DNA of 20,508 bases from Archangiaceae bacterium (GCA_043750125.1 JAYVCD010000024.1:1-20508); one strand, 5' to 3'. Shown: positions 12,357 to 20,508, counted from the first letter of the stretch. Made by a program: numbers and translations. Notes: generated from the letters alone by a model not told the origin.

Positions 12357-13232
12357 TCAGAAGGTGAGCGCGAGACCGACGTTCGGCTGAATCGTCGCCC
12401 CACCCAGGGTGCGCTTCTTCCCAAACAGCGTCGGGCTCGCCTCGGTGTTCCCCACGGTGAGTTCGATCAGACCACTCACCCGCCAGCCGCCAAACCGCAG
12501 CCCGAGGGTCGCCCCGTAGAACATCATGTCCACCTTCGCCTGGGTGCTGCTCTCTGGCTGGGTGCCCTCGGTGCAGTCGCACGGCTTGGCGAGGAAGGTC
12601 TGGCGCATCGTGGTGCGGCTGTAGAGGAACTTGGGAACGAAATAGACCCCGATGTGCGAGTTCCAGTCGGCGTTGAAATAGACGGGAACTTCGAGATCCC
12701 ACCGGTTGAACTCATCGAGGCGCACTCCGCCGAAGGCCCCGTCAATCTGGCTGCCGAGCATGTACTTCGAGAGCCCCACTCCGATCGCCACGTCGTAGGA
12801 ACGTCCCCGCGGCTCGTCCCAATCTTCCGAGTCTCCGCTGTGATGCACCCGCAACTTGGCGTCCGCGCGCATCGAATTGATGCTGTAGCGGAAGCCCACA
12901 TCGAGGTTCCGGATGATCCCCACCCGACCGTTGATCTCCCACACCGACGACGGAGGGAACATCGCCAGCGCGATCGCGGCGGTGCCAATCGCCTCTTTGT
13001 CGTCTCCGGTCAAAACGTAGGGGCGGTCGTTGGCATTGGCCATCGCGGTCCTCGCGCCAATGCGAATTCCTTCCGCGGCACTGTTGACCAGCTGACCTGC
13101 GGGAACGTGCACCCCGAACCCTCCCGTGATGCGCACCTGCCCGGGATTCAAGGTCTTGGCGGTCTGCAGCGACGACAAGTTGGTCGCACAACCCGCGAAT
13201 ATCGGCAGCAGACAGACGAGGATTTGTTTCAT
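12357..13232 (-). CDS. Hypothetical lipoprotein with outer-membrane beta-barrel-like C-terminal region
   Basis: ATG 13232 gives MKQILVCLLPIFAG-C (lipobox); many alternating amphipathic strands (LDVGFRY, YDVAIGVG, YGATLGLRFG); ends in VGLALTF with a terminal Phe. Confidence 0.7.
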   Translation of the reverse strand: MKQILVCLLPIFAGCATNLSSLQTAKTLNPGQVRITGGFGVHVPAGQLVNSAAEGIRIGARTAMANANDRPYVLTGDDKEAIGTAAIALAMFPPSSVWEINGRVGIIRNLDVGFRYSINSMRADAKLRVHHSGDSEDWDEPRGRSYDVAIGVGLSKYMLGSQIDGAFGGVRLDEFNRWDLEVPVYFNADWNSHIGVYFVPKFLYSRTTMRQTFLAKPCDCTEGTQPESSTQAKVDMMFYGATLGLRFGGWRVSGLIELTVGNTEASPTLFGKKRTLGGATIQPNVGLALTF

Positions 13233-13345
13233 GAAGAGTAGGTTGCCGCTCGAATCTGGAGCGATCACCGCCCCCTGCTCTTTTCCGAAACGAACTGCTC
13301 TTTAATCAGCGACCCGTTGAAGCCGGGCGGCGGAGTCTTCGAGCC

Positions 13346-14521
13346 TCAGCCGACGTTTGAAGAAGCCACCTGGGAGTGGCGCTGAAGCCAGAGCTCGAAC
13401 GTCGTCCCCACGCCCACCGTCGACTGGAGCGTGATTTCACCGCCCATCGCGTGAATCAGGTCACGGCAGATCGCCAGGCCCAGGCCCGTTCCCACCCCAA
13501 CCGGGCGGGTCGTGAACAGTGGCTCGAACACTTTCTGATGCAGCTCGCGCGGAATTCCGGCGCCGTTGTCTTTCACCCAGACCCGAATGCCCTTGTCGCC
13601 GGTGTCTTCCCAACCCACTTCGATCGCGCCCTTGCGACCGATGCCGTCCATCGCTTGCGCGGCGTTGACGATCAAATTCAGCAGCACCTGGGTGAGCTTC
13701 ACCTGGCCTCCGCGAACCTGAATCGGAGCGCCATTGAGGGTCATCTCGGCGCGGGTACGCACTTCAGCCCGGGCGATGCGCGCGGCGAACTGAGCGACCT
13801 CGGCCAGATCGCTGTGGTCCTCTTTGTCTTCCCCGCGGGCCTGGGTGCGGATCCCCAGCGCGAGCTGGCGAATCAGCTGGGCGCCTTTTTCGATGTCATC
13901 CAGAAGGCTCGGCATGTCGTCGAGCGAGGCGCCGACCTGCGCGTTGGGCGCGGTCAGCAGTTGAGCGCGGGCACAATTCGCAATTTCGATCATCTCGCCG
14001 CGCAGCGTCGAAACATTCTGGGTGAGGTACGAGACGGGGTTCATCAGCTCATGGGCAATTCCCGCCGAGACCTGCCCGATCGCGGCCAGACGTTCCGAGC
14101 CGAGCATCCGCAATTGAACTTCGCGGACCTTGGTCTGCAGCTCGTAGATCTTCAGCGCATCCTCGAGAGCAGCCGACAGCTCTTCTCGCACCCACGGCTT
14201 GACGAAGTAGCGCGAGACCTGCCCGCGGTTGACCGAGGCGACCACCGCCTGCATGTCTGAATAGGCGGTGATGATCATCCGCTGAATGTCGGGGAAGTCC
14301 TGGCGCACTTTTTCGAGCAGCTCGACGCCGCTCATCACCGGCATGCGCTGGTCGGTGATCAACACTCCGATGTCCGACCGGTTGCGCAGCACCTCGAGCG
14401 CGGCGGGGCCGCCCTGGCAGGTGATGACATTGAAGCGCATCTTGAAGCTGGCTTCGAAGACCTTGAGGTTGATCGGCTCGTCGTCGACGTAAACGACCGT
14501 GGGCCGATCAGTGGCTGGCAT
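13346..14521 (-). CDS. Hybrid response regulator-histidine kinase (REC-HisKA-HATPase)
   Basis: REC: VYVDDEP, LITDQRMP, IITAY, FVKPW; H-box GIAHELMNP; N-box LNLIVNAAQA; DNGAGI, FEPLFTT, GTGLGL. Start ATG 14521 has a GGAGAGG RBS and overlaps the upstream gene by 14 nt. Confidence 0.93.
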   Translation of the reverse strand: MPATDRPTVVYVDDEPINLKVFEASFKMRFNVITCQGGPAALEVLRNRSDIGVLITDQRMPVMSGVELLEKVRQDFPDIQRMIITAYSDMQAVVASVNRGQVSRYFVKPWVREELSAALEDALKIYELQTKVREVQLRMLGSERLAAIGQVSAGIAHELMNPVSYLTQNVSTLRGEMIEIANCARAQLLTAPNAQVGASLDDMPSLLDDIEKGAQLIRQLALGIRTQARGEDKEDHSDLAEVAQFAARIARAEVRTRAEMTLNGAPIQVRGGQVKLTQVLLNLIVNAAQAMDGIGRKGAIEVGWEDTGDKGIRVWVKDNGAGIPRELHQKVFEPLFTTRPVGVGTGLGLAICRDLIHAMGGEITLQSTVGVGTTFELWLQRHSQVASSNVG

Positions 14522-17192
14522 GATCCTCTCCCTGCTGCGGTTTGGCGTGCGGCAGTTTGACGGTGAACCGGGCGCCCAGACCGACCGTCGAGTCGACCGA
14601 GATCTGCCCTCCGTGCTTCTCGACGATCTCCCGGACGATGGCGAGGCCCAGCCCGGTGCCACTGCCCACGTCCTTGGTGGTGAAGAACGGGTCCCAGATG
14701 CGCTTGAGCACCCTGGGTTCGATGCCTGCGCCGTTGTCGCTCACTTCGACGGTAGCGTGGCCGTTGACGCGGCTGACTTTGACCCGCACCGCCCCCGACG
14801 GAGAAGCGGCCTGAATGGCGTTGTCGATCAGGTTGACCCAGACCTGGTGCAGGGCACCGGCTTCTCCGACGACGTTGACCGATTCGGTCGAAATGAGCTC
14901 AGAGATGAGCTCGACTCCCGTTCCCACTTTGTGAGACAGCAACTGCAGAGCCAGGCCGACGTTCTCGCTCAGGTTCACATCGCCGCGGGTGCCTTCCCCC
15001 GACCGACCCTGCTTGAGCAGTTGGTCCGAAATGTACTCGACCCGTTTGCTGCTCTGAATGGCGAGATCGATGAGCTCGATCATTTCGGGCGAGGCGCTGG
15101 GCATCAGCTCTTTGAGCGGCTCCAGCGCATTGATGATCCCGTTGAGCGGGTTGCGGATTTCGTGCGCCACTCCGGCGACGACCGCACCCAGGGCCGCCAA
15201 TTTTTCGCGCTGCGCCATCTGCGTCGCGAGCTTGCGCAGCCGAAGCTGCGAGTTGAGCCGGGCGCGCAGTTCCTCGAGATGAAACGGCTTCATCAAGTAG
15301 TCATCAGCACCCTTCTCGAAGCCATTGAGTCGGGTGTCGATCTCCGCGCGGGCAGTGAGCAGCACGAAGGGAATGTTGGAGAGAGCGGAATCGCCCTTGA
15401 TCGCCGCGCAGAGCTCGAGGCCATCCATCTCGGGCATCATCAAGTCCGAAAGGACGACGTCGGGCTGGTGTTGACGGATGAGCCGCAGCGCCTGAGCCCC
15501 ATCGCCGGCCTCGATGACCCGGAAGGTGAGCGCGAGATTCTTGACGATGAACCCCCGCAAGGCCTCGTTGTCTTCAGCGACGAGGAGAGTCGGCAGATCG
15601 CGATTGTCGTCTTCGGCGACGGCAAGCGGCGAGGCGGCGGCGGAATTCTCGCGATGAGAGGCCGCATCGAAGAGGACCAGCTCGGCCGCCGACGGCTTGA
15701 GCGCGACCGGCTTGGCGAGGGGGTCCAGGTGGCCAACGGGCAGCTGGACGGTGAAGCGCACCCACGCGCCGAGCTTCGATTCGGCATCGATGGTTCCGCC
15801 GTGGAGCTCGACCAGCTCACGCACGACCGGAAGCCCCAGACCGGTGGACCCGAAGCGTCGAGAACGGCTGCGGGTCGACTGGGTAAACCGACCGAACAAC
15901 GTGGGCAGTTCCTCGGCGGGCATTCCCTCGCCTGAGTTCTGAATCGAGAAGAACGGCCCTAGGTCGTTTTTGCCCGCTCGGACCTCGATCGTGCCGCCAT
16001 CGGGTGTGAACTTGATCGCGTTGGACATCAGGTTGAGAGCGACCTGCTCGAGGCGCTCGCCGTCAGCAGCGAGGGGAAGGCTCCCTTCCATCACCGTCGT
16101 GAGGGTGATCTTGCGAGCGCGCAAAGCAGGTCCCCAGGAACGAAGGATCTCGGTGAGCAGACGCACCAGGTCGACCGAGCCCATCGTGAGCGTCATCTTG
16201 CCGGCCTCGATCTTCGACAGGTCGAGCACGTCGTTGACCAGCTTCAGCAGCTTGTAGCCGCTGCGGGCCACCGCGTTGATTTCAGACGCCGCGTCGGGGG
16301 GGAGCCCCTTCGAGGCGGCCAGAACTTCGAGTGGGCCGAGCATCAATGTGAGCGGGGTGCGCAGCTCGTGTGAGGCGTTTCCGAAGAATTCTGTCTTCAA
16401 ACGATCAGCTTCCTTCAGCTGTTGCAGTGATTGTTCGAGCTGCCCAGTGCGTTCGGTGACTCTCTGCTCGAGCGTGCTGTTGGCAGACAGGAGCAAGACG
16501 TTCTTTGCTGCGAGCTCGGCCTGAGCAACTTCCAATTCGATGAAGTTTTGCTGAAGGCCTTCGTGAGCGGATTTGAGTTCACGTGCCGTTGCCAGCATCG
16601 TGAACGGCGCGAGGAATGCTCGGCGAAAGCGCATCCACCAACCACCACCGGGCGGTACGGAGACCAGATAGTGCGCCCCATTGTTTTCAGTGATCATCTC
16701 CACGGACGCTGCAGGAAGACCAAGGACGCGGGGCATCTCAATGTAGTTTCCCTTGCACATCAAAAAGAATTCGCGCGGGCGCTCGAAGCCTGGCAGCAGA
16801 TTCATCCCCAACCTCAACCGCAGCGGGCCGAGCTCTTCGAAAGCTGTTTCGACGCATGTAAATGCATCCTTGCCCGGGCCACTGCTGGTCTGTTCAAAAA
16901 TCCATCGATAAAAATCTGTCGCGGTAAAAAGTGTCCGCGCAACCAGAGACATGTAACGAAGGAATGGATTTCGAAAGGTTTCGCGACCCAAGTCCACCAG
17001 TTCTTCATCACTAAGGTGCTGCCCGGTATTGCGAAGAATTGTACAAAACGCTTCCCAGCCAATTCGCTCTTTTCTGTTTTTTAAATGAGCAACCGAAAAT
17101 CCGGTACCTTCGGACAAAAGCTCGGGCGCCAGGGATCGTCGCGCGAAGGCCACGAAAAACATTGGCAGCATTCGACAAGAAACTTCCTTCAT
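14508..17192 (-). CDS. Soluble hybrid sensor kinase with two kinase cores (input domain-HisKA-HATPase-REC-HisKA-HATPase)
   Basis: H-box 1 NASHELRTPL, NLMSNAIKF, GSTGLGL; REC LLVAEDN/LSDLMMPEMDG/LLTA/MKPF; H-box 2 VAHEIRNPL, NLIDNAIQA, DNGAGI, DPFFTTK, GTGLGL. Start ATG 17192 overlaps the KAS III stop (ATGA). Confidence 0.92.
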   Translation of the reverse strand: MKEVSCRMLPMFFVAFARRSLAPELLSEGTGFSVAHLKNRKERIGWEAFCTILRNTGQHLSDEELVDLGRETFRNPFLRYMSLVARTLFTATDFYRWIFEQTSSGPGKDAFTCVETAFEELGPLRLRLGMNLLPGFERPREFFLMCKGNYIEMPRVLGLPAASVEMITENNGAHYLVSVPPGGGWWMRFRRAFLAPFTMLATARELKSAHEGLQQNFIELEVAQAELAAKNVLLLSANSTLEQRVTERTGQLEQSLQQLKEADRLKTEFFGNASHELRTPLTLMLGPLEVLAASKGLPPDAASEINAVARSGYKLLKLVNDVLDLSKIEAGKMTLTMGSVDLVRLLTEILRSWGPALRARKITLTTVMEGSLPLAADGERLEQVALNLMSNAIKFTPDGGTIEVRAGKNDLGPFFSIQNSGEGMPAEELPTLFGRFTQSTRSRSRRFGSTGLGLPVVRELVELHGGTIDAESKLGAWVRFTVQLPVGHLDPLAKPVALKPSAAELVLFDAASHRENSAAASPLAVAEDDNRDLPTLLVAEDNEALRGFIVKNLALTFRVIEAGDGAQALRLIRQHQPDVVLSDLMMPEMDGLELCAAIKGDSALSNIPFVLLTARAEIDTRLNGFEKGADDYLMKPFHLEELRARLNSQLRLRKLATQMAQREKLAALGAVVAGVAHEIRNPLNGIINALEPLKELMPSASPEMIELIDLAIQSSKRVEYISDQLLKQGRSGEGTRGDVNLSENVGLALQLLSHKVGTGVELISELISTESVNVVGEAGALHQVWVNLIDNAIQAASPSGAVRVKVSRVNGHATVEVSDNGAGIEPRVLKRIWDPFFTTKDVGSGTGLGLAIVREIVEKHGGQISVDSTVGLGARFTVKLPHAKPQQGEDHASH

Positions 17193-18268
17193 CGACCCCA
17201 CCGCATGGTTTGACCCGTCCATGTAATGCCAGTTCCTCCGGTGTACATGGCGACCAAGTCTCCATCCTTGAGAGTACCTTCACGCTCTCCCATTCCAAGC
17301 ATAAAAGGGATGTTGCAGGCAGCAAGACTTCCGGTCCAAGCGAACGAGTCGAATGACTTAGCCCTTTTCAGACCCATGTATTCCTGCGTCACCTTGCGGA
17401 ACCAATAGGTGGATTGATGGGTGGCATAGAAATCGACATCCATGGGCTGATGGCCGCTTCGCAAGAGGGCTTCGTCGATCACTTCCTTGGCCAGGTCCGC
17501 AATCAGTAGCAACATGTTTCGGGCGCACTGGCGGTCCGGCGTGTAGAGGACCGTTCGATCGGCTTCCCACCATCGGGCGCCTGGTTTGCCACCCACCAAC
17601 GCCAGGTGAAAACTACCGTCCGTCCGGTGGGACCATGACAGCGCGCCCTTTCCCTCGGAAACGGGTCCAACGAGCACCGCCGTGGCTGCATCTCCAAACC
17701 AAGCGGAATGATGATCCTCTGGAAGGCTAATTGCTGAGCAAGTCGATGACTGGATGAGCAAAGCGTTACGCGCTTGACCAGACTTGATCATCTGCTCCGC
17801 CAGCGCGAATTGCACAAGAAAAGAGTTGCACGCTGAATGCGTGTCCAAAGACAAACAATTTCGATTGAGTCCCAACTGTCGATGCACCAACGGCGCGTTC
17901 GGAGTTAACAGGTGATCGGGCAACTGACTGAACACCATCAAAAGGTCGATGTCGGACTTCGCAACCCCAGACCGCTTGATTGCGTCGTCTCCTGCCGCAA
18001 CTTCCATGTCCGACGGGTTAACGCCCTTAGGCATGACTCTTCGTTCGATAGCGCCCTTGAACGCGTCGCCCTTGTAGCTGGCCATCGCCTCCAGCGTTCG
18101 ACGGGCTCCCTCGGTCTGAGCATCATCTTTTGAATGCTCTGGTCGCACGAGATTGGTGCGTTCTCCCCAGGAACGGACAACCGACTCGGGCCACCAATCG
18201 TTTTTCCTGATTTCCGAAGGAAGATGAATGCCAACTCCAAGAATGCCGACGGAAGTATTTGTGGTCAT
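17189..18268 (-). CDS. 3-oxoacyl-ACP synthase III (FabH/KAS III)-like condensing enzyme, atypical
   Basis: GILGVGIHLP, ERR, catalytic Cys in SACNSF, FGDAATAV, His in ATHQ, C-terminal GDLVAMYTGGTGITW; GSL occupies the position of the FabH GN(T/S) motif. Confidence 0.9.
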   Translation of the reverse strand: MTTNTSVGILGVGIHLPSEIRKNDWWPESVVRSWGERTNLVRPEHSKDDAQTEGARRTLEAMASYKGDAFKGAIERRVMPKGVNPSDMEVAAGDDAIKRSGVAKSDIDLLMVFSQLPDHLLTPNAPLVHRQLGLNRNCLSLDTHSACNSFLVQFALAEQMIKSGQARNALLIQSSTCSAISLPEDHHSAWFGDAATAVLVGPVSEGKGALSWSHRTDGSFHLALVGGKPGARWWEADRTVLYTPDRQCARNMLLLIADLAKEVIDEALLRSGHQPMDVDFYATHQSTYWFRKVTQEYMGLKRAKSFDSFAWTGSLAACNIPFMLGMGEREGTLKDGDLVAMYTGGTGITWTGQTMRWGR

Positions 18269-18272
18269 GAGT

Positions 18273-20045
18273 TCACGAAGCGAAGTTCTTCATCTGGGTG
18301 ACGCGCCCATGAATTGGGAACGCAGACTTGGGATCGAGCGCGATATCGAGCACCAGCGGCACGTCTGAGTTGAGCCAGTCAGCAGGGATTGCCTCAAGAT
18401 CGGCGACGGTACGAATCGAAAGTCCTCGCGCGCCCATAGCGCGCGCCATCGCGGCAAAATCATTCCGAGGCCCATGCATCACTCCACTGCGGCCGAACAC
18501 GCGCGACTGACCGGATTCAACCATTCTCATTCGGGCATCATTGAACACTGCGAAGACCACGCCGATGTTGCTCTGAACACATGTCGCGAGCTCGTTTCCT
18601 CCCATCTGAAATCCGTAATCGCCGCAGATCGAGACCACCGGACGTTCGGGCCGGACCACTTTGGCTCCGATGGCCGCTCCAATTCCCGAGCCCATCGAAC
18701 CCATGCCTGTCGATACGAGAAAGCCATCAGGGCGATCGATCTTCAGGTAGTGGAGCGCGAAGATTGTGTGCTCACCAATGTCACTGGTGAAAATCGTGTC
18801 TTCGGGACAAATGTCCTGCAGGCCGCGAATGACCCTGCCCGACTTGAGCGGCAATGAGTCGTCAATCATCTCCTGGGGATTCAGATATTTTACGCCCCCG
18901 TTGCTCGGCCCGGTCGGTTTGCGGCGAGTGACTTTGGCTACCAACGAACGCAGCACCAGATGCGACGGCCCGATCAGCCCATAATCGACTTGGTAGTTCT
19001 TCCCGATTTGCGCGCCATCGATGTCGATTTGAATGAACGTCTTCGAGGGCTGCAGCACGGGGCTCCAGCTGTTGGTGCCAGTCTCACCCAGTCCGCAACC
19101 GATGGCGATCAAGGTATCGATGCCATTGTCGAGGTAATGAGACGCTGAAGGGTGGCCTCCAAAACCGAATACACCCAGTGAGAGCGGGTCGCTCTCGGGG
19201 AAGAGGCCTTTGGCCCGAGGCGTGGTGCAGACAGGGATGTTGAGGGTCGCGGCAAGCGCACCGACCAGACGCACCGCTTCGGGGTGACGTGCACCCGAGC
19301 CGACGAGAATCAGAGCACGCTCACTTGTCTGCAATGCCGTGGCTGCCTCAGAGATTGTCTCCTCATCGAGTGCGAACTGGGTTGAGACCTGTGTCGCCGA
19401 CCGCATCGGCCGAACCTTCTCGTTGGCGATGTCGAGCGGCAGCGAGAGAAATACCGGACCTCGCCGCCCCGACAATGCTGTGGCCACCGCCTTGCGAATG
19501 ATGCTGGCAGCCGCACGGGGATTCGAAATCTCTGCGGAAAACTTGGTCACGCTGCGCACCATTCCGAGGATGTCGAGGTGTGAGCTGCTGCCTTCCTGCA
19601 ATGCCCCACGACCAAAATTGCGGCGAGGCACTTCGCCTCCGATTGCGATCATCGGAACGCCATCGGCAAACGCAGAAGCCAGCCCTGTCAGCGCATTGGT
19701 GATGCCCGGACCCGAAGTCATCAAAATGCATGGCAGGGTCCCGCCTACCTTCGAGTGCCCCATCGCCATGAAAGCGGCTCCCGTCTCGTGTCGGGTGTTG
19801 ATGATGCGCATCGAAGGATGATCAAGCAGAGCGTCGTAGATGGGGCAGATCGCGCCCCCGGGGATTCCATAGAACGTATCCACCCCGAGCTCCTCGAGGG
19901 TCTGCACGATGACGTCAGAAACTCGCGCCGTCGGGCGCTCGACCGGCGCGACCAATGCGACGGGTTTGACCAGCGCGATTTGTTTGATTTGTGCGATTGC
20001 CATAGGGGGGCTGATCGGTACCACTTTCTTTATCGGGAGTTCCAT
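18273..20045 (-). CDS. Thiamine-diphosphate-dependent enzyme (acetolactate synthase/acyloin synthase-like)
   Basis: GVDTFYGIPGG, RHETGAAFMA (catalytic Glu), TSGPGITN, GPVFLSLPLD, GMGSMGSG, ThDP motif GDYGFQM...FND. Start is ATG 20045 or ATG 20003; stop lies 4 nt before the KAS III start. Confidence 0.92.
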   Translation of the reverse strand: MELPIKKVVPISPPMAIAQIKQIALVKPVALVAPVERPTARVSDVIVQTLEELGVDTFYGIPGGAICPIYDALLDHPSMRIINTRHETGAAFMAMGHSKVGGTLPCILMTSGPGITNALTGLASAFADGVPMIAIGGEVPRRNFGRGALQEGSSSHLDILGMVRSVTKFSAEISNPRAAASIIRKAVATALSGRRGPVFLSLPLDIANEKVRPMRSATQVSTQFALDEETISEAATALQTSERALILVGSGARHPEAVRLVGALAATLNIPVCTTPRAKGLFPESDPLSLGVFGFGGHPSASHYLDNGIDTLIAIGCGLGETGTNSWSPVLQPSKTFIQIDIDGAQIGKNYQVDYGLIGPSHLVLRSLVAKVTRRKPTGPSNGGVKYLNPQEMIDDSLPLKSGRVIRGLQDICPEDTIFTSDIGEHTIFALHYLKIDRPDGFLVSTGMGSMGSGIGAAIGAKVVRPERPVVSICGDYGFQMGGNELATCVQSNIGVVFAVFNDARMRMVESGQSRVFGRSGVMHGPRNDFAAMARAMGARGLSIRTVADLEAIPADWLNSDVPLVLDIALDPKSAFPIHGRVTQMKNFAS

Positions 20046-20060
20046 AGGGTGGGTCCGATT

Positions 20061-20076
20061 TGCACAGTGCGTACCG
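20061..20076 (-). promoter_or_regulatory. Candidate sigma-54 (-24/-12) promoter of the ThDP/KAS III/kinase operon
   Basis: Minus strand CGGTACGCACTGTGCA has exact GG-N10-GC spacing and resembles TGGCACG-N4-TTGCW. Confidence 0.45.
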
Positions 20077-20149: not shown

Positions 20150-20279
20150 GCTGACCCATTGGGGTCCCCTGACCCGTCAGCGCTGACCGCGATCACGTCA
20201 GGCTACCGCTCAGACGCTGGCAGGCCTGCAGTCCAAGCGGCTGCAAACACGTTGGCGCGCGCGCGATGAGTGGGTCAGC
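20150..20279. repeat. Cluster of CTGAC/GTCAG half-sites (possible activator or operator sites)
   Basis: CTGAC-N2-GTCAG (20169-20180), perfect palindrome GTCAGCGCTGAC (20176-20187), CTGAC-N9-GTCAG (20183-20201), GCTGACCCA (20150-20158)/TGGGTCAGC (20271-20279). Confidence 0.45.
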
Positions 20280-20376: not shown

Positions 20377-20508
20377 TCAGGCCCGCAGTGCGGCCGATTT
20401 CTTCCCGCCGGCCGCCCGGGCCTTCCTTTTCACCACGACGGGAGCCACCTCGACCTCGACTTCGACCAGGTCCGCTCCGCCAGGCTCTTTCACCCCGCCC
20501 TTCACCGC
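20377..20508 (-). CDS. 3' end of an unidentified gene running in from beyond the window (basic tail)
   Basis: Open frame from the window edge: AVKGGVKEPGGADLVEVEVEVAPVVVKRKARAAGGKKSAALRA-stop, with GC-rich third positions. Confidence 0.5.
   Translation of the reverse strand, partial: AVKGGVKEPGGADLVEVEVEVAPVVVKRKARAAGGKKSAALRA

Follow-up and report, generated by a model that had tools for sequence, protein, structure and literature searches.

A candidate signal-synthase and receptor operon of Myxococcota in which a ketosynthase and a kinase sensor region are exchanged together

Gene order and its conservation

The window analysed here is a whole 20.5-kb contig (ending at position 20508) from a metagenome-assembled genome (MAG), 89% complete, of an Archangiaceae bacterium (GCA_043750125.1, JAYVCD010000024.1:1-20508). 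Its minus strand carries a run of four genes, head to tail, encoding a thiamine diphosphate (ThDP)-dependent enzyme, a ketoacyl synthase III (KAS III)-like enzyme, called KAS below, and two histidine kinases, HK1 and HK2. This run had been predicted from the sequence alone to be a quorum-sensing-like operon that makes a small molecule and senses it. Reading the open reading frames (ORFs) and junctions directly, we found the tight packing that the original prediction described, with a 4-nt gap between the ThDP and KAS genes (18269-18272), an HK1 ATG that overlaps the KAS stop codon as ATGA, and a 14-nt overlap between HK1 and HK2. Pfam likewise finds the expected domains in each of the four proteins. 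The genes and the parts of HK1 are as follows.

18273-20045, minus strand: ThDP-dependent carboligase-type enzyme, 590 aa, with an acetohydroxyacid synthase (AHAS)-like fold (three TPP_enzyme domains), CybE-like by context
17189-18268, minus strand: KAS III-like enzyme, 359 aa (ACP_syn_III and ACP_syn_III_C), CybF-like by context
14508-17192, minus strand: HK1, hybrid double kinase, 894 residues (HisKA and HATPase, Response_reg, second kinase module)
16563-17192, minus strand: sensor domain of HK1, residues 1-210, predicted H-NOX-like fold (AlphaFold2 model; no Pfam family)
15723-16397, minus strand: first kinase module of HK1, HisKA and HATPase_c (Pfam HisKA at 276-341 of a 904-aa ORF; H-box SHELRTPL)
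15255-15584, minus strand: receiver domain of HK1 (Pfam Response_reg, 6.9e-25)
14532-15236, minus strand: second kinase module of HK1, HisKA-like and HATPase_c (second HisKA/HATPase_c stretches, 789-893; H-box AHEIRNPL)
13346-14521, minus strand: HK2, 391 aa, receiver (REC) followed by a histidine kinase core (Response_reg 9-119, HATPase_c 273-381)

CybE and CybF are a described enzyme pair. CybE, a ThDP enzyme, makes an acyloin from two 2-oxo acids, and the KAS III-like CybF O-acylates the acyloin with an acyl-coenzyme A (CoA) and cyclises it to a furanolide core, according to the accessible parts of two publications (PMC13288894, PMC8777810).

The ThDP ORF might instead begin at 20159, but the ATG at 20045 is kept in G004, a genome of the same genus. 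The ORF listing also offered a start at 17222 for HK1, whose homologues align from the methionine at 17192. The H-boxes and receiver aspartates of both kinases are all present, as judged by eye from the translation. The second kinase module of HK1 has an AtoS/ZraS-type NCBIfam match at 663-897, and the best NCBIfam matches of HK2 are of the myxobacterial EspC/EspA type, far under cut-off. Because no 19-residue window exceeds 1.3 on the Kyte-Doolittle scale in HK1 or HK2, we regard both as soluble, in agreement with the kinase free of transmembrane segments that had been predicted. Family scans of the ORFs detected no ilvH/ilvC, acp/fabD/plsX, tailoring, export or resistance genes in the 20.5-kb window, and all of these except the resistance genes had already been listed as missing. 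Neighbouring genes encode a Kup potassium transporter, an aminopeptidase and a spermidine-synthase-like protein, none of which has to do with the synthesis of branched-chain amino acids or fatty acids.

A search of the neighbourhood in other genomes had been suggested with the prediction, and it showed that the ThDP-KAS III-kinase order recurs. KAS is followed by HK1 in at least 31 genomes from several families of the phylum (Myxococcota, by the source names of KAS homologues), and the complete order of ThDP, KAS, HK1 with its N-terminal domain (N-domain) and HK2 is found in G002, G011, G029, G004, G016 and G009. The arrangement is beyond chance, since the same order recurs in many genomes. 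Of 401 genomes sampled from the whole phylum, 68 gave a match to a profile of the N-domain. Among the best 30 N-domain loci, KAS lies directly upstream in 26 (including L043, from the unpublished genome G220) and is absent in 2; the other 2 are truncated at a contig end, and in each of these genomes a different contig terminates in a ThDP-KAS pair. Larger flanks were examined for 27 loci holding both KAS and the N-domain. ThDP adjoins KAS in 24 of them, HK2 directly follows HK1 in 17, and in 25 the HK1 start lies -4 to +28 nt from the KAS stop. Of all the links, that between KAS and HK1 is the best conserved, and it outlasts rearrangement of ThDP or HK2 in L066, L067 and L075.

KAS and the sensor region are exchanged as one cassette

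Next, we compared the operon along its length with that of G004. Identity was 76% in ThDP, 33% in KAS, 31% in the N-domain, 83% in the kinase core and 81% in HK2. Sliding identity stayed at 70-96% to the last residues of ThDP, and fell to 12-56% in KAS (12-46% past its first 30 residues) and to 0-43% in the HK1 sensor region (residues 1-248), where G004 carries about 100 extra residues. It was back to 60-96% exactly at the first HisKA, and this level was held through HK2. The divergent segment is also marked by its composition. GC content falls to 49-59% across it, and GC content at third codon positions (GC3) is 58-61% (KAS 60.8%, sensor 57.7%), compared with 80-84% in the kinase cores and flanking genes. 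These data define the following feature.

16449-18268, minus strand: co-replaced candidate specificity cassette, consisting of KAS together with the sensor region of HK1 and ending where the dimerization and histidine phosphotransfer (DHp)/HisKA helix begins (sliding-window identity, GC dip)

The same boundaries were found in genus g13, where L025 and L063 are 89% identical in ThDP and 86% in the kinase core, but 32% in KAS and 28% in the N-domain. The cassette of L063 is of the window's type, with 57% identity to the window in KAS and 41% in the N-domain, though the ThDP enzymes are 43% identical. A third pair, L068 and L073, is milder; its divergence peaks in KAS and the N-domain, and the roughly 60 residues after the N-domain are 83-86% identical.

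Across 20 complete loci, pairwise identities of KAS and the N-domain were correlated at r = 0.82. The partial correlation, with ThDP and the kinase core removed, was also 0.82, a value reached by 0 of 2000 permutations. ThDP and kinase-core identities were correlated at r = 0.72, compared with r = 0.38 for KAS and ThDP and r = 0.45 for the N-domain and its own kinase core. Phylogenetic trees gave a matching picture. Two clades are common to the KAS and N-domain trees, one (clade A) comprising the window, L008, L021, L062, L063, L064 and L070, and the other (clade B) comprising L024, L025, L060, L027, L061 and L065. Groups taken from the KAS tree were then tested on the ThDP and kinase-core trees, which group by genus and reject clade A (approximately unbiased (AU) test, p 2.8e-7 and 5.7e-6, values that overstate independence because the loci are kin). 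A comparison of synthase and sensor-domain phylogenies had been proposed with the original prediction; here the KAS and sensor trees agree with each other and differ from the rest of the operon. The neighbourhood search and the tree comparison thus both favour the prediction. Together, these results show that KAS and the sensor region are inherited and exchanged as one cassette, independently of ThDP and the kinase core.

Co-variation of this kind might also be hitch-hiking in recombination tracts, within an ordinary antibiotic butenolide cluster of the enhygrolide type whose regulators answer an unrelated cue. KAS and the sensor region are contiguous, and a deviant GC3 such as that of the cassette is typical of imported DNA. 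Enhygrolide A is antibacterial, as stated in the accessible part of one report (PMC12395478). In Plesiocystis pacifica and Enhygromyxa salina only two co-localised homologues, of cybE and cybF, are found, the rest of the cyb cluster being absent, and these have been proposed to make deoxyenhygrolide butenolides (PMC8777810, accessible text). However, the tract boundaries fall at the KAS start and at the sensor/DHp junction in two genera, and the milder divergence of L068 and L073 is likewise highest in KAS and the N-domain and drops in the residues that follow. KAS is adjacent to both ThDP and the sensor, yet tracks the sensor and not ThDP, and its junction with HK1 survives where ThDP or HK2 has moved. 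The lack of resistance, export and tailoring genes in the window is a further point against an antibiotic cluster. These asymmetry controls, with KAS not tracking ThDP and the sensor not tracking the kinase core, speak against pure hitch-hiking, and we consider the antibiotic-cluster explanation distinctly unlikely.

The enzymes, the sensor domain and the surrounding region

The ThDP enzyme matches TPP_enzyme_N, _M and _C in Pfam at E values from 1e-35 to 7e-38 each. It has the three-domain layout of AHAS and lies below the cut-off of all AHAS equivalogs; its best NCBIfam match, the biosynthetic AHAS model TIGR00118, gives 382 bits against a cut-off of 538, and it is below cut-off on all other models. 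Its best solved relatives, ahead of all acetolactate synthases, are two proteins deposited under the names BbmA (8x3x, 3e-96) and CsmA (8x3z, 2e-86), for which we found no papers in the literature searched. The enzyme is 74-77% identical to its counterparts in G004 and G002, also of the same genus. Its C-terminal third (18273-19000) is mostly 66-83% identical to G004, with one window at 30%, compared with 70-96% in the first two thirds, and its GC content is lower, at 56-60%; imported DNA may thus extend into the 3' portion of this gene.

KAS scores 136.5 bits against 249 for the FabH model PRK09352 and 125.1 against 292.1 for TIGR00747. In an alignment with FabH structures and 11 relatives, its catalytic Cys (SACNSF) falls in the column of the active-site Cys of FabH, and the His-Gln residues are retained, whereas the position of FabH Asn274 is Ser in the window's enzyme and Ser, Gly, Asn or Thr in relatives. 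Because Cys and His-Gln are kept and the Asn274 position is variable, the active site would fit an acyl-transferring rather than a malonyl-decarboxylating KAS III. KAS also has a family-specific N-terminal stretch of about 70 residues that is missing from FabH, and it lies far from the cut-offs for the dialkylresorcinol ketosynthases StlD/DarB (30.6 against 450 bits and 29.3 against 550). Its close homologues, which all carry generic or hypothetical annotations, belong to MAGs of Myxococcaceae and Myxococcales and to Minicystis rosea, whose KAS is 52% identical; they place the window's organism in Myxococcota. A contig scan with the KAS alignment, keyed on a generic FabH motif, returned 80 loci, all of them ordinary FabH at 25-32% identity.

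If the pair were a housekeeping acetolactate synthase and FabH that stand beside kinases by accident, it would make sense that the 89%-complete genome (G000) has no other AHAS above the TIGR00118 cut-off and that the window's ThDP enzyme is its best match. The low scores of both enzymes and the missing Asn274 speak against this, as do the lack of a small-subunit gene or ilvC next to ThDP and of any ilvC above cut-off in the genome, the two other FabH-like genes in the same genome, and the detection of a KAS homologue in just 12 of 41 related genomes. The concern, raised at the outset, that the enzymes might prove to be housekeeping AHAS and FabH is not borne out, and we give this explanation hardly any credence. 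With no acetolactate synthase above the TIGR00118 cut-off and no ilvC above that of TIGR00465, G000 may be auxotrophic for branched-chain amino acids, as some myxobacteria are.

Other ThDP-KAS pairs were seen. On contig C316 of G000 (L184:53-11474), a second and more distant ThDP and KAS III pair lies inside a chemosensory cluster, in the order CheA-like protein, methyl-accepting chemotaxis protein, CheB, REC protein, ThDP (319 bits to the profile), KAS III (193 bits) and a di-iron desaturase/rubrerythrin-like protein. At L022 (G009:C25, 7583-15905) a ThDP-KAS pair has no N-domain kinase, and CheR together with a CheA-like Hpt-HATPase-CheW-REC protein is encoded 1-2.5 kb away on the opposite strand. 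More than one type of signal-transduction gene seems to accompany ThDP-KAS pairs.

As in CybE/CybF, a ThDP enzyme adjoins a KAS III-like enzyme with a nucleophilic Cys; the difference is that CoA ligase, ammonia lyase and tailoring genes are absent from the present window. Of the Atlas clusters, the second nearest to KAS is cyanobacterial (score 0.97), which we take as a lead only. Membership of the pair in the CybE/CybF type is a well-motivated inference. Carbazole-type (NzsH/NzsJ) and xenocyloin-type pathways were also considered and set aside, as the locus has no acyl carrier protein, cyclase or second KAS, although the product may still be a simple O-acyl acyloin.

We then analysed the sensor domain. 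The N-domain has no Pfam family; its sole match, to SKA2, is at chance level (E 0.033), and there was no match to HNOB (even at E<=10), Arabinose_bd, XylR_N or V4R. An AlphaFold2 model based on seven sequences (pLDDT 84.5, pTM 0.79) was most similar to an H-NOX protein (6bde), with Z 13.8 and a root-mean-square deviation of 2.9 A over 166 of 185 residues (Foldseek E 5.7e-5). It also resembled the drug-binding N-terminal domain of Mycobacterium tuberculosis VirS (8rcw, Z 11.9) and Bet3 (Z 8.4-9.4), and the phenol sensors DmpR and MopR appeared lower in the Foldseek list. XylR_N/V4R clusters were the nearest Atlas features, at a weak score of 0.80.

These matches raise the question of a true heme H-NOX gas sensor for NO or O2 that controls the kinases, with the enzymes as unrelated passengers. 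H-NOX proteins are the best structural matches over the whole domain (Z 11.5-13.8), and their genes commonly stand beside histidine kinases. True H-NOX domains ligate heme through a proximal His and a Y-x-S-x-R motif. Among 27 aligned N-domain sequences W46 alone is invariant, no His is conserved at 90% or more and there is no Y-x-S-x-R motif, so heme ligation is unsupported. The lack of an HNOB match and the similarity to heme-free folds (the VirS N-terminal domain, Bet3) also argue against a gas sensor, which would moreover leave the co-replacement with KAS unexplained; we judge it very improbable. The N-domain thus shares with H-NOX sensors the fold of a whole 180-residue domain and the association with histidine kinases, but differs in having no HNOB sequence match and no conserved His and in being fused to a kinase or GerE helix-turn-helix (HTH). 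With the heme-free VirS, XylR_N/V4R (DmpR, MopR) and Bet3 domains it shares a hydrophobic-ligand fold with a pocket placed before an output domain, at 8-14% sequence identity and with other outputs.

The N-domain family is large, with 1999 cluster representatives at E<=1e-3 among 1.84 billion. The domain almost always begins at residue 2 of the protein and precedes HisKA, HisKA_3, PAS, GAF and DUF835 outputs; in 6 of 6 scanned proteins of about 300-490 residues it is fused to a GerE/LuxR HTH. Because it is joined to LuxR-type HTHs and to other kinases, it appears to be a modular ligand sensor, and we predict from the model a small-molecule-binding fold that serves as an input domain. One-component N-domain-GerE/LuxR HTH proteins occur at L087, L088, L098, L095, L096 and L097. 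In five genomes with N-domain LuxR-type proteins the KAS matches are FabH-like alone (<=191 bits, without the family's N-terminal 70 positions), and it is possible that these proteins are 'solo' receptors. A LuxR-type protein near the ThDP-KAS pair of G034 was tried as a relative of the N-domain and rejected (hhalign probability 0.1). Three tandem short N-domain ORFs lie on contig C10 of G028 (L089). HK1 of the window (16449-17192) and of G002 lack a segment of about 100-120 residues between sensor and HisKA that is present in most HK1 proteins (for example L024:8354-9373), so that HK1 has 894 residues and most others about 1000. This segment is GAF-like by eye and has no Pfam match in L024.

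The region upstream of the operon holds one candidate regulatory element.

20061-20075, minus strand: candidate sigma-54-type -24/-12 element, GGTACG-N5-TGCA, 16 nt upstream of the ThDP start codon

It has a sigma-54-like GG-N10-GC pattern (GGTACGCACTGTGCA) and lies inside a block of about 35 nt that is near-identical between the window and G004, the rest of the intergenic region having diverged. In 5 of 28 loci such a pattern occurs no more than 110 nt upstream of ThDP, compared with 17 matches in a 1.1-Mb background (both strands of the loci). Transcription from this site would give a very short leader and depend on an enhancer-binding protein. A sigma-70 promoter scan gave 0 sites, and terminator-like sites were at background level (10 against 7.6). 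Directly upstream of ThDP, 13 of 28 loci have a gene for a small REC protein, which in L027, the one scanned, consists of HTH_17 and Response_reg; this gene is not present in the window or G004.

Further from the operon, a 303-residue ORF (12357-13268, minus strand) has a lipoprotein-type signal (a hydrophobic stretch ending in AGC) and matches no family in Pfam or NCBIfam. Its G004 counterpart is 75-77% identical and is parted from HK2 by ApbE, thioredoxin-like and DUF3570 genes; the ORF probably lies outside the module. The contig start (2-3663) carries ordinary sulfate-assimilation-type genes, encoding a tetrapyrrole methylase domain protein, a PAPS-reductase-family protein and an EF-Tu/CysN-type GTPase. 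Among the sequencing runs listed for the locus there are no RNA runs, and six DNA runs from two sediment-metagenome studies contain all or part of it, two of which may be its source. In a read layout at 85% likeness, identical low-depth fragments span the cassette in X3 and X4; conserved kinase motifs drew hundreds of unrelated contigs into that layout.

A proposed signal and receptor module

The findings above led us to the view that the locus is a self-contained signal-synthase and receptor module of Myxococcota, in which the KAS/sensor cassette sets the specificity of signal and receptor. We put the probability of this at roughly 55%. As the families and context of the enzymes suggest, the ThDP enzyme would join two 2-oxo acids into an acyloin, and KAS would transfer an acyl group from an acyl-CoA onto it. 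The product would be a hydrophobic O-acyl acyloin or a cyclised butenolide/furanolide, as with CybE/CybF, and would bind in the heme-less H-NOX-like pocket of HK1. KAS would set the variable, acyl-derived part of the signal and the sensor domain would be tuned to match it, giving strain- or lineage-specific channels like the pherotypes of agr and comQXP. Ligand binding would alter HK1 autophosphorylation, and the signal would then reach the REC-kinase HK2 by way of the receiver and second kinase module of HK1. The relay may end, in many genomes, at the HTH-REC regulator encoded just upstream.

A cytoplasmic sensor might instead report on the cell's own metabolism. The N-domain would then bind the acyl substrate of KAS, a precursor or the KAS protein itself, and the module would read amino-acid-derived 2-oxo acids and acyl-CoA pools with no secreted signal, the two halves of the cassette being tuned to an acyl class or to each other's surface. 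The solubility and cytoplasmic location of HK1 and HK2, the translational coupling of KAS and HK1 and the lack of an export gene in the window are all in line with this, and the co-variation data fit it as well as they fit product sensing. However, hydrophobic butenolide-type molecules pass membranes without transporters, and the N-domain occurs without KAS in LuxR-type and other kinase proteins; since it works without KAS elsewhere, a KAS-binding surface is not general to the domain. We regard such internal sensing as somewhat unlikely.

Several observations weigh against a secreted signal matched to its receptor, and they concern the exchange, the linkage and the chemistry. There are only two clear independent swaps, and the loci are related to each other; KAS lies next to the sensor, and linkage could account for some of the co-variation, since both fit on a single recombination tract. 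Some loci lack part of the module: KAS-HK1 stands without an adjacent ThDP in the three rearranged loci named above, N-domain kinases occur without KAS at L052 and L055, 13 lower-scoring N-domain kinase loci have neither enzyme, and the six N-domain-HTH loci have no ThDP or KAS. At L083 (G028:C6, 5153-10908) KAS is missing from its usual place, and an N-domain hybrid kinase and HK2 come directly after ThDP. A cytoplasmic receptor beside its synthase fits a membrane-permeant signal and, equally, the report of an internal metabolite. The furanolide chemistry is argued from architecture, one paper's statement and the Atlas lead, and genes for aromatic acyl-CoA supply (the ammonia lyase CybB and the CoA ligase CybC) are not among the window's ORFs; they are also missing from the Plesiocystis locus, according to the accessible text (PMC8777810). 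Nostoclides, which are furanolides, showed no autoinduction in Nostoc in the accessible part of the report on them (PMC9324945). A prediction of the KAS and N-domain complex scored 0.00, which we weighed neither way.

That report nevertheless offers the closest precedent for a furanolide signal. In Nostoc punctiforme, nostoclides from a cyb-like subcluster are described as cell-density-linked mediators of gene expression, and their receptor is not known, no kinase or receptor being mentioned in the text accessible to us (PMC9324945). The likeness to our proposal is a furanolide from a cyb-like subcluster that acts as a mediator; the difference is the lack there of a known receptor and of autoinduction. 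The original prediction named no described system with this gene combination. We found no description of the combination with kinases, and no paper that joins a furanolide with a histidine kinase, in the literature searched (subscription journals and supplements lay outside the search), and the accessible text on the marine-myxobacterial homologues makes no mention of a histidine kinase (PMC8777810). The ThDP/KAS III pairing in myxobacteria, however, is already in print. New here are the association of this pairing with kinases, the family of H-NOX-like sensors and the exchange of the cassette.

The pattern of exchange can be compared with known signalling systems. In agrBDCA of staphylococci and comQXPA of Bacillus, one hypervariable cassette comprises the gene that matures the signal and the sensing portion of the kinase. 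This cassette is swapped as a whole, whereas the kinase core and the remaining operon are conserved; the signals are peptides, sensed by membrane domains. The present operon is like them in the adjacency of synthase gene and receptor kinase and in the joint exchange of the signal gene and sensor part with the rest conserved. It differs in the proposed signal, a lipophilic metabolite from ThDP and KAS III enzymes, in the soluble H-NOX-like sensor and in the unrelated protein families, and the hydropathy profiles of HK1 and HK2 give no sign of a membrane-embedded sensor. CqsA/CqsS, LuxM/LuxN and PhcB/PhcS also place an autoinducer synthase gene beside a hybrid kinase receptor that feeds a phosphorelay. 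Their receptors are membrane proteins and their synthases are pyridoxal phosphate-dependent or methyltransferase enzymes. The synthase-type gene next to a hybrid histidine kinase is shared with our locus, which by contrast has no transmembrane segment, two enzymes and three kinase cores.

Myxobacteria are model social bacteria for which, to our knowledge, no endogenous pairing of a small-molecule synthase with its receptor, like LuxI/LuxR or CqsA/CqsS, has been defined. The locus is a candidate signal module with built-in specificity variants, as two cassette types occur inside single genera. More tentatively, and with the odds against it, furanolide-like autoinducers made by ThDP and KAS enzymes and read by a heme-less H-NOX-like receptor class may constitute unrecognised private small-molecule languages in Myxococcota. 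The receptor class would then also be present on LuxR-type 'solo' regulators, and cassette exchange would create pherotypes that could serve kin discrimination. If the proposal is true, a sensor family of about 2000 cluster representatives would gain its first ligand class, which would help in the study of many LuxR-type regulators and orphan kinases. A receptor would be gained for furanolides and butenolides, which have been seen mainly as antibiotics or algicides, and the receptor type missing for furanolide mediators such as the nostoclides would be supplied. The KAS/sensor pairs would also represent natural orthogonal signal-receptor sets of possible use in synthetic biology.

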